This document shows, piece after piece, positions 17,262 to 21,832 of a stretch of DNA of 64,000 nucleotides. This stretch comes from Clostridiaceae bacterium. GTDB taxonomy: Bacteria; Bacillota; Clostridia; Tissierellales; Sporanaerobacteraceae. Location: positions 156,367-220,366 of the forward strand of contig JAHXQP010000020.1 of NCBI GenBank assembly GCA_019391515.1, in the 5' to 3' direction. Position numbers and translations under genes: made by a program. Under the pieces are notes generated by a model. The model worked only from the letters and a program-made list of their open reading frames with translations. It had not been told where the DNA came from and did no database searches. The stretch's first letter is position 1, and every line of letters begins with the position of its first letter.

Positions 17262-18218
17262 ATGAATAAGTATTATTTGGGAATAGATACAAGCGCTTAT
17301 ACTACGTCGATTGGAATTGTTAATGAAGAAGGACAGGTGATTTTGGATCTAAGAAAGAGGTTAAAGGTTGCAAAGAATAAAAGGGGACTAAGACAACAAG
17401 AAGCAGTTTTTCAGCATATTAAAAATTTACCTGAAATGTTTGCTAAAGTGTCTGAAACTATAGATATAAATGATTTAATGGTTGTAAGTGCTAGTACTAA
17501 GCCAAGAAATATAGAAAAGTCGTACATGCCTGTTTTTGTTGTGGGAAAAGAACAGGCTTTCATTATATCTAAGTTGCTTAATATACCTTATAAAGAATTT
17601 AGTCATCAGGAAGGACATATATCGGCTGGAATTATAGGTACTGCTCTTGAAAGGGAAGAAAATTTTTTAGCTTTTCATATATCAGGAGGCACTACAGAAT
17701 TACTCTTTGTAAATAATAAAAGAGAAAAATTTGATATTGAAAGAATAGGTGGGACATTGGACATAAGTGTTGGACAACTAGTAGATAGAATCGGAGTAAA
17801 ACGAGGATTAGACTTCCCATGTGGAGAAAAAATGGATTATTTATCTCAAAATGGAAGTATAATAAATAAAAAAATACCAATTAGCGTAAAAGATACTTGG
17901 GCAAATTTTTCTGGATATGAGAATCTTTTTAATGATTCAATAGATAATAAAAAGTATTTAACTGAAGATATAATTAAAACTTTATTTTATACAATATATC
18001 TATGTTTAGAGGAGATAATAGTTAATTCATGTATGAATTTTAATATAGGGAAAGTACTACTAATAGGTGGAGTAGCTTCTAATATTTTTATTAGAAAAAA
18101 TCTTAGTGAAAGTTTAAGTAAAAGGGGTATAGATTTATATATACCTCCTATAGAATATTGTTCAGATAATGGAATAGGAACTGCTTATTTAGGAAATGTA
18201 AAGAATGACCATAGGTGA
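17262..18218 (+). CDS. TsaD/Kae1-like ASKHA protein (O-sialoglycoprotein endopeptidase family paralog)
   Basis: LGIDTSAYTTS, SHQEGH, ISGGTTE, GGTLD...GQLVDR, GGVASN, CSDNG. Confidence 0.82.
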   Translation: MNKYYLGIDTSAYTTSIGIVNEEGQVILDLRKRLKVAKNKRGLRQQEAVFQHIKNLPEMFAKVSETIDINDLMVVSASTKPRNIEKSYMPVFVVGKEQAFIISKLLNIPYKEFSHQEGHISAGIIGTALEREENFLAFHISGGTTELLFVNNKREKFDIERIGGTLDISVGQLVDRIGVKRGLDFPCGEKMDYLSQNGSIINKKIPISVKDTWANFSGYENLFNDSIDNKKYLTEDIIKTLFYTIYLCLEEIIVNSCMNFNIGKVLLIGGVASNIFIRKNLSESLSKRGIDLYIPPIEYCSDNGIGTAYLGNVKNDHR

Positions 18219-19668: not shown

Positions 19669-20538
19669 ATGAGCGTAATGGATGAAATTGATCATTTGAA
19701 AGAAGTTATAGATGATGAATTAAATAGAATTTTTGTTAACAAAACAGGATATCAAGAAAAAATATTTCAAGCTATGAAATATAGTCTTTTTACGGGAGGA
19801 AAGCGAATTAGACCTGTACTTTTGCTAAAGAGCTGTGAAATGATTAGTGGAAGTTATGATGAAGCTATTCCTTTTGCATTGGCTTTAGAGATGATTCATA
19901 CTTATTCCCTTATTCATGATGATTTACCATCTATGGATGATGATGATTTTAGAAGAGGAAAGCCAACAAATCATAAAGTGTTTGGGGAAGCTATTGCAAT
20001 ACTTTCAGGAGATGGACTTCTTAATTTAGCATATGAGATAATGATAGAAAATACAATTTTATTTTCAAAAAATGGAGAAGATTACTATAAGTTTTTATTA
20101 GCTTCTAAAGAAATTAGTAGAGCTAGTGGTGTAGATGGGATGATTGGGGGACAAGTGGTTGATATTTTATCGGATAATGAGTCTATAGATAGTTTAGAAT
20201 TAGAATTTATGTATAGATGTAAGACAGCAGCATTAATTGAGGCAGCAGTAGTTTCAGGAGGAATTATTGGAGGGGCTAATGAAATAGAAATAGATAATTT
20301 ACGAAAATATGGACGTTGTATTGGTTTAGGTTACCAAATAAGGGATGATATATTGGATATGGATGAAGATAGGGCAATAAATAAAACAACCTATTTGTCT
20401 TTTAATTCTCTTGAAATGGCAAAGAAAAAAGTAAAATCTTTAAGCAAGGAAGCAAAACTATCTTTAGAAATTTTCAAGGATAATAATATTAGCTTTTTAG
20501 AAGAAATTGCATATTATTTAATTAATAGGAATAAATAG
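19669..20538 (+). CDS. ispA: Farnesyl-diphosphate synthase (geranyltranstransferase)
   Basis: GGKRIRP, HDDLPSMDDDDFRRG, GQ..D, KTA.L, Q.RDDILD. Confidence 0.95.
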   Translation: MSVMDEIDHLKEVIDDELNRIFVNKTGYQEKIFQAMKYSLFTGGKRIRPVLLLKSCEMISGSYDEAIPFALALEMIHTYSLIHDDLPSMDDDDFRRGKPTNHKVFGEAIAILSGDGLLNLAYEIMIENTILFSKNGEDYYKFLLASKEISRASGVDGMIGGQVVDILSDNESIDSLELEFMYRCKTAALIEAAVVSGGIIGGANEIEIDNLRKYGRCIGLGYQIRDDILDMDEDRAINKTTYLSFNSLEMAKKKVKSLSKEAKLSLEIFKDNNISFLEEIAYYLINRNK

Positions 20539-20550
20539 ATTTTTGTATCA

Positions 20551-20579
20551 TTGAAATAAGAAATATTCTATGCTATAAT
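20551..20579 (+). promoter_or_regulatory. sigmaA promoter of OLE RNA
   Basis: TTGAAA-N17-TATAAT with extended -10 (TGCTATAAT); predicted start about 20586-20587, at the RNA 5' end. Confidence 0.8.
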
Positions 20580-20586
20580 TATGATT

Positions 20587-21161
20587 AGCTTAGAGTGGTG
20601 CAGTATTCTAGTCAGCACAGCTATTCTCGAAGGCGGGGCTAAAAATCCGTCGAAGGGCATATCGATGAAGTTCCTAATCTCGGCTTTCGACGCCCAGTTG
20701 GGGGCCGTTATTGGGAGTAAGAGAGATGGGGCGATCTGCAATGGCATGCAGGCGTTGACCCTACTCTCGTGGAGACTTATCCTATAATACGGAAGGATAA
20801 GATAAACCTGCAAAGTAAATTCTATTACTAGCAGTGTAGCCTGCCTTGAGTGAAGTGGGCAGAAGATAATGGAAAACTAAACTTTTCAAAGGGCCCAGGA
20901 AAGTTAGGTTTTGTTATCGAAACCCATTTTGCAAAAGAGGCTAAGGAATAGACTGGCTGTTTGAGGAAAACTCCTAGACTGTTCTATTTAGGAGGTATAC
21001 TAGGGATTACAGTGCGGTCTAAGTGGTAATCTAGTTTCACTATTTGGCGACAAAGTGAAGATAAGATTGAAGGGAAACCGCTAATATGGCGACATGGAGT
21101 TCTTATCTGGGAAATCCTGCTAGACCTTAAGCCGTAAGATTTACTTAGTATATCACCACTC
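20587..21161 (+). ncRNA. ole: OLE (Ornate Large Extremophilic) RNA
   Basis: About 575 nt, visibly GC-richer than flanks, between ispA and oapA; closing helix GAGTGGTG(20593-20600)/CACCACTC(21154-21161); blocks recalled from the OLE consensus: GTGCAGTATTCTAGTCAG, GAAGGCGGG.CTAAAAATCCG, ATCGATGAAGTTCC, AGCAGTGTAGCCTGCCTTGAGTG, GAGGAAAACTCCTAGACTG, GGGAAATCCTGCTAGACCTTAAGCCG; several GNRA-capped hairpins (e.g. TTTG-GCGA-CAAA 21043-21054). Confidence 0.93.
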
Positions 21162-21193
21162 AAAAAGCTGATAGCATTTGCTATCAGCTTTTT
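21162..21193 (+). terminator. Intrinsic terminator immediately 3' of OLE RNA
   Basis: AAAAAGCTGATAGC-ATTT-GCTATCAGCTTTTT then ATTCTT. Confidence 0.8.
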
Positions 21194-21244
21194 ATTCTTA
21201 TAGGACTTTTCAAACCAATAAAATAATCTGGAGGTTATCATTAA

Positions 21245-21832
21245 ATGAGAAGAAAAGGTGATGATGGTATATCACATAAACAAAATAAAAAATGGGTTAT
21301 TATTATTTCTGTGTGGACATTTGTAATGGCCATTTTTTTTAGCTTAATAACCGAAAAACTTATGAAAAATTTAGATGTATTTTTTGCATTCATAATATTA
21401 ATTATTATTATACTATTAGGTATTCTATTTGATATAATAGGAATTGCGGTAACAGCCTCAGATGAAAAACCTTTTCATTCTATGGCTGCAAATAAAGTAG
21501 AAGAAGCAAAATATGCTATAAAACTTATTAAAAACGCAGGGCAAGTATCAAACTTTTGTAATGATGTTATTGGAGATATAAGTGGTATTGTAAGTGGTTC
21601 TGCCGGAACAATTATTATTTATAATATTATAAATAGATATAACATTAAAGATGGTACTATATTAAGTATAATAATAACAGCTTTGATTGCCTCTTTTACC
21701 GTAGGTGGAAAAGCCGTAGGAAAAGAAATAGCTATAAATAATTCTGAAAAGATTATATTTAGAATGGCTAAAGTACTAAATTTTCTAGAAAATAATTTTA
21801 AAATAAAATTATTTAAAAATCAAGCAAAATAA
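21245..21832 (+). CDS. oapA: OLE-associated membrane protein A
   Basis: Four TMs, FD.IGIA.TA....PFHSMAA.KV and SNFCNDVIGDISGIVSG (DxxGDxxGxxxG); directly after OLE. Confidence 0.9.
   Translation: MRRKGDDGISHKQNKKWVIIISVWTFVMAIFFSLITEKLMKNLDVFFAFIILIIIILLGILFDIIGIAVTASDEKPFHSMAANKVEEAKYAIKLIKNAGQVSNFCNDVIGDISGIVSGSAGTIIIYNIINRYNIKDGTILSIIITALIASFTVGGKAVGKEIAINNSEKIIFRMAKVLNFLENNFKIKLFKNQAK

Follow-up and report, generated by a model that had tools for sequence, protein, structure and literature searches.

A sequence-conserved, terminator-like hairpin between the OLE RNA and oapA in Tissierellales

How is a gene expressed that lies directly behind a large non-coding RNA, with a terminator-like hairpin and no evident promoter in front of it? 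The question is raised by the ole–oapA–tlyA locus in a 64,000-nucleotide (nt) stretch of contig JAHXQP010000020.1 from a Clostridiaceae bacterium of the order Tissierellales (the window; all coordinates are window positions), taken from a genome of 2.84 Mb with 29.8% G+C. The locus is an ordinary, canonical full-length ole gene followed by oapA and tlyA. The RNA is a known one, and the way its genes are arranged is particular to the clade; a promoter of this kind had been described before, and the conserved putative terminator is the informative part. A hairpin with a U-tract starts on the base after P1, the helix whose two arms enclose the OLE core. This hairpin is a sequence-conserved feature of the whole clade and not a peculiarity of this genome, a point that the initial annotation of the locus had missed. 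We consider it probable that the hairpin acts as a partial terminator favouring OLE, behind which the promoter-less oapA–tlyA would be reached by read-through, at a fixed ratio of RNA to mRNA. The sequence features, their conservation across the clade, the specificity of the hairpin for OLE and the lack of a downstream promoter were computed here.

A terminator-like hairpin directly follows the OLE RNA

The features of the ole–oapA region, all on the forward strand, are the following.

20551–20579 (+): ole promoter, TTGAAA, 17 nt, TGcTATAAT (extended −10); 11/12 plus TG
20579–21175 (+): OLE RNA, full-length type; Rfam match RF01071, 489.4 bits, model positions 1–616
20587–20592 (+): predicted transcription start site A20587 and 6-nt leader AGCUUA before P1, placed from the position of the −10 element
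20593–20600 (+): P1 5′ arm GAGUGGUG, partner of 21154–21161
21154–21161 (+): P1 3′ arm CACCACUC, partner of 20593–20600
21162–21193 (+): putative terminator hairpin AAAAA-GCUGAUAGC, loop AUUU, GCUAUCAGC-UUUUU; 14 base pairs (bp), core 21167–21175 / 21180–21188
21189–21199 (+): U-tract UUUUUAUUCUU, holding the predicted 3′ end of terminated OLE
21200–21244 (+): promoter-less spacer with the oapA ribosome-binding site GGAGG at 21230–21234
21245–21832 (+): oapA (ATG at 21245), membrane protein of 195 amino acids; weak Pfam CNNM match, 29.6 bits

The OLE RNA was the sole match above the gathering threshold that cmscan returned for the window; it spans the complete model (E 1.5e-140, against a threshold of 50 bits), and its score also places it above the 390 bits or more used to delimit the 'full-length' OLE type (Fernando & Breaker 2024, PMC11332333). 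A single OLE copy is present in the genome, and oapA lies directly 3′ of it, as expected for the OLE family. The core from P1 to P1 (20593–21161) measures 569 nt, and the predicted primary transcript about 610 nt. The initial annotation had recognised an OLE RNA of about 575 nt here; the covariance-model match bears out the identification, but the length falls short of the predicted transcript. Among 26 distinct relatives, P1 shows changes on both sides at 4 of its 8 pairs, and 96.6% of the cells are paired.

The hairpin behind P1 contains 5 G–C pairs among its 14, and its predicted free energy of −19.8 kcal/mol (z −6.6) was reached by none of 200 shuffled sequences. With a stable, G–C-containing stem–loop and an immediate U-tract, it has the sequence marks of an intrinsic terminator, and the earlier observation of such a structure directly after P1 holds. 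When the predicted 614-nt transcript was folded whole (z −9.3), P1 and the hairpin both formed, adjacent to each other. The hairpin is unique in the window genome, and a permissive Rfam scan of its region for known RNA families returned noise only.

In the window's genus, the hairpin is flanked by AAAAA and UUUUU and would thereby stop antisense transcripts as well. Only L001, L018 and L022 show such a bidirectional form.

The hairpin is conserved in sequence across Tissierellales

OLE was detected in 32 of 41 relatives, in 179 of 399 genomes of the class and in 92 of 401 Bacilli. The hairpin survey covered 30 Tissierellales loci (about 20 families), 70 loci from other orders of Clostridia (about 58 of them scorable) and 30 Bacilli loci. 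A survey of ole–oapA spacers for terminators had been suggested in the initial annotation. In the present one, the hairpin GCUGAUAG(C)/(G)CUAUCAGC-UUU occurs in 27 of the 30 Tissierellales loci, 4–7 nt past P1, and is mostly absent elsewhere. Its consensus reads GCUG(A/G)UAG(C/U), a loop of 3–16 nt, (G/A)CU(A/G)UCAGC and then UUU, the last of these standing immediately 3′ of the stem in 29/30 relatives. Two of the exceptions are genomes of a single family, f2 (L026, L028), which have no hairpin. The third, L004, carries a different hairpin in the same place (CCCCCAC...GUGGGGG followed by UUAAUUU), which was found by eye and falls below the U-tract rule of the scan.

Within the other Clostridia orders, the conserved hairpin was present in 3 of the roughly 58 scorable loci, all belonging to one family (f51), and about three further loci have unrelated terminator-like hairpins; the remainder have no hairpin, and their oapA starts 23–35 nt after P1. 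It was found in none of the 30 Bacilli loci, about four of which have unrelated terminators. Terminator-like hairpins between ole and oapA have thus arisen several times, and the Tissierellales one alone is conserved in sequence across an order.

The conservation of the stem was quantified in an alignment of 30 sequences (26 distinct) covering P1 and the hairpin. Six of the nine core pairs are invariant, two vary by wobble only, through A-to-G changes that give G·U in six sequences, and one apical pair shows a compensatory change from C–G to U–A, so that every cell (100%) remains paired. Fifteen of 18 stem positions (83%) never vary. In the OLE cores of the same 30 sequences, which share a mean identity of 78% (minimum 66%), this holds for 40% of the columns. 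The loop (3–16 nt), the linker and the distal tail vary freely. The stem is also more conserved than OLE's own P1 helix. All stem substitutions maintain base pairing in the plus-strand RNA only, which points to a constraint on the RNA rather than on a DNA palindrome.

The hairpin is also specific to OLE. Its 7-bp core occurs about once per OLE-positive relative genome, at OLE, and other matches appear at the rate of a reversed-pattern control. With the hairpin unique in the window genome and OLE-specific in relatives, we rejected the idea of a generic repeated element; the one core match in a genome lacking OLE (G021) falls within the coding sequence of an ABC-ATPase and was put down to chance. 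An exact-hairpin search over 185,579 species genomes matched at least 119 stretches of DNA. Among the matches listed (119), about 31 are OLE 3′ ends in Tissierellales genera, the genera listed being Gudongella, Tissierella, Caloranaerobacter, Sporosalibacterium, Anaeromonas and Dethiothermospora; the remainder of those listed are unrelated and comprise an AGCT-rich repeat family in one Gemmatales metagenome-assembled genome and scattered terminators.

Two groups of these unrelated matches may be described. The Gemmatales (planctomycete) assembly, JBBQPD01, contains dispersed repeats of AGCU-rich units (GCTGATAGCTGTTAGCTGACAGCTATCAGC) with conserved flanks on many contigs (L061, L064, L067, L077, L091 and about 15 more). 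In the Bacillaceae genera Geobacillus, Parageobacillus and Anoxybacteroides, the same stem serves as a terminator after the end of a lysine-rich open reading frame (L086, L101, L116, L125, L143, L161, L165). OLE was found in 0 of the 3 Bacillaceae genomes with a stem match that were searched, and the resemblance to the OLE hairpin seems coincidental.

The promoter of ole

The ole promoter consists of TTGAAA (20551–20556), TG (20571–20572) and TATAAT (20574–20579) with 17-nt spacing. The scan turned up no excess of promoter-like sites as a class in this AT-rich region (31 against an expected 42), and the promoter call therefore relies on how good the site is and on its presence in relatives. 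A TGnTATAAT promoter, with its −10 element 11–13 nt before P1, is found in 27/30 Tissierellales loci, and most other Clostridia sampled have comparable extended −10 promoters in front of OLE; the extended −10 ole promoter is a family trait and is not peculiar to this genome. Promoter function is known experimentally from Halalkalibacterium (Bacillus) halodurans only and is elsewhere read from sequence. In that species, ole has its own proximal promoter, with >100-fold expression and 5′ ends at P1 by rapid amplification of cDNA ends (Wallace et al. 2012, PMC3413148; see also PMC9723947).

These data place the initial annotation's view of transcription in perspective. The near-consensus sigma-A promoter that it saw at the 5′ end of OLE stands (11/12 plus the extended −10), but its description of OLE as a processed part of an ispA–ole–oapA transcript is outdated, the proximal promoter having already been shown. 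It had further called ole a self-contained transcription unit. The gene does have its own promoter and a terminator-like hairpin, but nothing of the kind separates it from the operon upstream: the scan of the locus found no terminator-like site on the plus strand between the ispA stop (20538) and ole, so that polymerases coming from the upstream operon can run on into ole as well.

Read-through as the probable route to oapA and tlyA

No promoter-like site of at least 9/12 was found on the plus strand between 20783 and 21277, which agrees with the earlier statement that no convincing promoter precedes the oapA ribosome-binding site. The relatives give the same picture. In 25 of the 26 Tissierellales loci with a placeable start, the end of the stem lies 24–59 nt from the start of oapA, a stretch that includes the U-tract and the ribosome-binding site, and the best promoter-like score in the hairpin–oapA spacer of relatives is 10 or less, compared with 11–13 for the ole promoters. 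As a spacer of 24–59 nt leaves no room for a promoter, read-through is the only evident route to oapA–tlyA. A putative terminator between OLE and an apparently promoter-less oapA is thus a conserved Tissierellales trait, and oapA can probably be produced only by polymerases that read through the hairpin.

Family f51 (L195, L199, L209), from another order of Clostridia, offers an informative comparison. Its GCUGAUAG hairpin lies 9–13 nt past P1, and behind it stands a newly gained extended −10 promoter, TGCTATAAT, with 93–98 nt between the end of the stem and the start of oapA. In these genomes, ole and oapA would be fully uncoupled, and a hairpin with a promoter added behind it is what is expected if the hairpin really terminates. 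The dependence of oapA–tlyA on read-through, which the initial annotation had proposed, is accordingly well supported by sequence, through the missing promoter site, the short spacer and the promoter gained in f51.

One Tissierellales locus has a longer spacer. In L027 (genome G022; its family, f18, also includes L030 from G036), the spacer measures 264 nt and contains TTGACA, 18 nt and CAAAAT; oapA may have its own promoter there.

From these observations we infer partial termination at the hairpin and a role for it in stoichiometry. RNA polymerase would initiate about 6 nt ahead of P1, from the sigma-A promoter with its extended −10 element, and a hairpin of 9–14 bp with its U-tract would form right after the P1 3′ arm and act as a Rho-independent terminator. 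Most transcripts would end at the U-tract as discrete OLE molecules, about 610 nt long, with little or no end-processing, and the 3′ hairpin should also shield OLE from 3′ exonucleases. The oapA–tlyA genes would be transcribed only by read-through polymerases that had set out from the ole promoter or from within the nusB...ispA operon. As a fixed partial terminator (attenuator), the hairpin would set a high ratio of OLE RNA to oapA mRNA. In most other lineages, which have no terminator and an oapA start 23–35 nt past P1, OLE must be released by processing.

Some points weigh against this proposal. The hairpin in the window, with 14 bp and 5 U, looks strong, and read-through may be very low or may depend on a factor. 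The 3′ part of ole may harbour an unrecognised oapA promoter, for instance for another sigma factor. Finally, termination alone does not account for the near-invariant sequence of the stem.

Alternative explanations

The initial annotation had suggested that read-through is tuned, either by OLE folding through pairing of a 5′ AGCU with the left arm of the hairpin or by the adjacent NusB. The pairing itself can form in the window, where AGCUU (20587–20591) is complementary to AAGCU (21165–21169), but it is not conserved: a helix of at least 5 bp between leader and left arm is found in 8/30 relatives and is absent from the other 22. One apparent compensatory change (U–A to C–G) and a permutation P of about 0.04 speak for it, although this P is not corrected for relatedness, and native leader/linker pairs have a duplex energy (−4.8) hardly more favourable than that of mismatched ones (−3.8); besides, a helix of 5 bp is thermodynamically too weak to compete with a hairpin of 14 bp. 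This extension of P1 was therefore rejected as a conserved antiterminator. A search within OLE for a conserved alternative partner of either hairpin arm gave only G·U-rich matches at inconsistent positions, and the candidate 5′ CUAGUCAGC was discarded, as it overlaps a conserved P2 strand and shows no covariation; no competing structure through which OLE folding might act is thus conserved. As for NusB, its gene does lie in the same gene block, but this position is the standard Firmicute gene order, and the plus strand from 20400 to 21300 contains no BoxA-like sequence within 3 mismatches of TGCTCTTTAACAA, the window-wide count being that of chance. Antitermination by either route appears highly improbable.

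The near-invariance of the stem invites a different reading, in which the hairpin serves above all as a structural module of OLE peculiar to this clade, its stem being recognised by an OLE-particle protein or another factor, with termination secondary or factor-dependent. We regard this as unlikely. Stem pairs that are invariant (6/9) or vary by wobble only (2) next to a free loop, linker and tail, and 83% invariant stem positions against 40% of core columns, are what such a module would show, as are the single hairpin copy per genome, always at OLE, its direct stacking on P1 in the predicted fold, and the retention of the stem in f51 although oapA has its own promoter there. Yet sequence-specific reading of a plain Watson–Crick stem would be unusual, the invariant UUU after the stem is that of a plain terminator, and no conserved alternative pairing was found. 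L004 has moreover swapped in an unrelated terminator hairpin and one family (L026, L028) has lost the hairpin, which indicates that the specific sequence is dispensable. If termination did depend on a bound factor, oapA–tlyA expression would respond to the state of the particle. A more specific form of this idea, that the 8-bp stem GCUGAUAG/CUAUCAGC is an extra OLE helix read sequence-specifically by a particle component or a termination factor and works as an autoregulatory attenuator, seems quite unlikely to us; were it true, OapA and TlyA synthesis would follow the level of free or assembled OLE particle, and the attenuator would be one built into a large non-coding RNA. A terminator that is essentially complete, with oapA–tlyA transcribed from an unrecognised promoter (in the ole 3′ domain, overlapping the hairpin or for an alternative sigma factor) and ole uncoupled from oapA, would suit the strength of the window's hairpin and U-tract, and full uncoupling does exist in f51, with its promoter behind the hairpin. 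It is nevertheless very unlikely, given the absence of any sigma-A-like site of at least 9/12 on the plus strand from 20783 to 21277, distances from hairpin to start as short as 24–35 nt in relatives with promoter scores of 10 or less, and the strong RNA-level constraint on the OLE 3′ domain, which leaves little freedom for promoter elements. Scarcely credible is a DNA operator for a dimeric DNA-binding protein controlling oapA: the inverted repeat is a perfect palindrome with conserved half-sites, but the spacing of these ranges from 3 to 16 nt, all substitutions preserve plus-strand RNA pairing through G·U, where a DNA palindrome would have mismatches, and an invariant U-tract follows the repeat.

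Comparison with known systems

The closest counterpart, the ole–oapA locus of H. halodurans C-125, serves as genetic model of the OLE ribonucleoprotein; it shares the RNA family, ispA upstream and oapA directly downstream, a proximal promoter with the 5′ end at P1 (PMC3413148) and the embedding of ole within a larger operon (PMC9723947). OLE of this species is described as 'presumably post-transcriptionally processed'. The Tissierellales loci differ in the sequence-conserved terminator-like hairpin that abuts P1, a hairpin that the sampled Bacilli do not have. In the OLE literature searched, the 2006 discovery paper lying outside the search, we found nothing on a terminator separating ole from oapA. 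Most other OLE loci of Clostridia are alike in the extended −10 promoter, the order of ole and oapA and the OLE core, but without a hairpin between P1 and oapA they would require co-transcription and processing. The published structural example from Clostridia is the 577-nt OLE RNA of Clostridium acetobutylicum (PMC12286853), whose locus falls outside our sample.

Partial termination inside an operon has a precedent. The rplL–rpoB attenuator of E. coli is a partial intrinsic terminator that sets the ratio of the products on its two sides. The arrangement proposed here is alike in that a hairpin and U-tract stand between an abundantly needed product and a promoter-less gene, with the ratio set by read-through; it differs in that upstream stands a large non-coding RNA, with the terminator as its 3′ end, and in that the sequence of the stem, not its structure alone, is conserved across an order. 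Riboswitches and other leader-type expression platforms likewise have a terminator between a large structured RNA and a gene, but no conserved antiterminator or alternative pairing was found here, and for this reason we do not class the hairpin as a regulated attenuator.

The balance between the very abundant OLE RNA and its membrane partner OapA was not addressed in the OLE literature searched. The loci surveyed offer a three-way natural comparison of no terminator (most lineages), a putative terminator with a promoter-less oapA (Tissierellales), and the same putative terminator with a new oapA promoter (f51), which makes the stoichiometry of RNA and protein testable by simple transcription assays. 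The terminated form would also define the mature 3′ end of OLE exactly, helping the design of constructs for structures of its unresolved 3′ domain. The near-invariant stem gives a concrete starting point for finding a further binding partner, if there is one; should the hairpin be a terminator and nothing more, the finding amounts to a modest note on gene organisation.

Genomic context

The genes that flank ole and oapA in the window, both on the forward strand, are the following.

19669–20538 (+): ispA, farnesyl diphosphate synthase; Pfam polyprenyl_synt 5e-47, NCBIfam FPPsyn 297.8 bits
21849–22652 (+): tlyA, rRNA 2′-O-methyltransferase; TIGR00478 285 bits, Pfam FtsJ and S4

The ispA gene is the last of an upstream block made up of nusB, a TsaD-like gene, xseA, xseB and ispA, in which nusB lies 3.3 kb upstream of ole. 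The order nusB...xseAB–ispA is usual in Firmicutes. The TsaD/Kae1-like gene (17262–18218), which scores 141 bits against an NCBIfam cut-off of 208, stands between nusB and xseA, the place of folD in B. subtilis. Downstream, tlyA begins 16 nt past oapA and is presumably co-transcribed with it; argR and recN follow.

The product of oapA contains DVIGD, a DxxxD motif, and its weak CNNM match is as described for OapA (PMC11332333). An oapA-homologous open reading frame lies 3′ of OLE in all relatives examined. With regard to other OLE partners, PF01248, the L7Ae family that includes OapC/YbxF, had no match in the window assembly, which lacks the whole region from the 3′ part of rpoC through ybxF, rpsL and rpsG to fusA. 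The one same-genus relative in which the neighbourhood was read (L250) has an L7Ae-family gene between rpoC and rpsL, the family is present in 76 of 77 related genomes, and proteins from L250 match only distant EF-G paralogues in the window genome. A missing OapC was therefore rejected, the absence of PF01248 reflecting an assembly gap over rpoC–rpsL–fusA, and this gap makes calls of gene absence unsafe for this genome. PF09953, at most a tentative stand-in for the OapB (YbzG) family, had no match either.

Two further observations concern the OLE loci. Many Bacilli loci (L220–L249) have a UACAUA motif, often as CAUACAUA, a few nt past the P1 3′ arm; it also occurs where the published 3′ primer for H. 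halodurans OLE lies and not in the Clostridia loci. In the window, an antisense promoter-like match lies inside tlyA (21898–21870, reverse strand; TTGACA, 17 nt, TAAAAT) and points towards oapA and ole. With 11/12 it is level with the ole promoter and is among the two best sites in a 7.5-kb scan.

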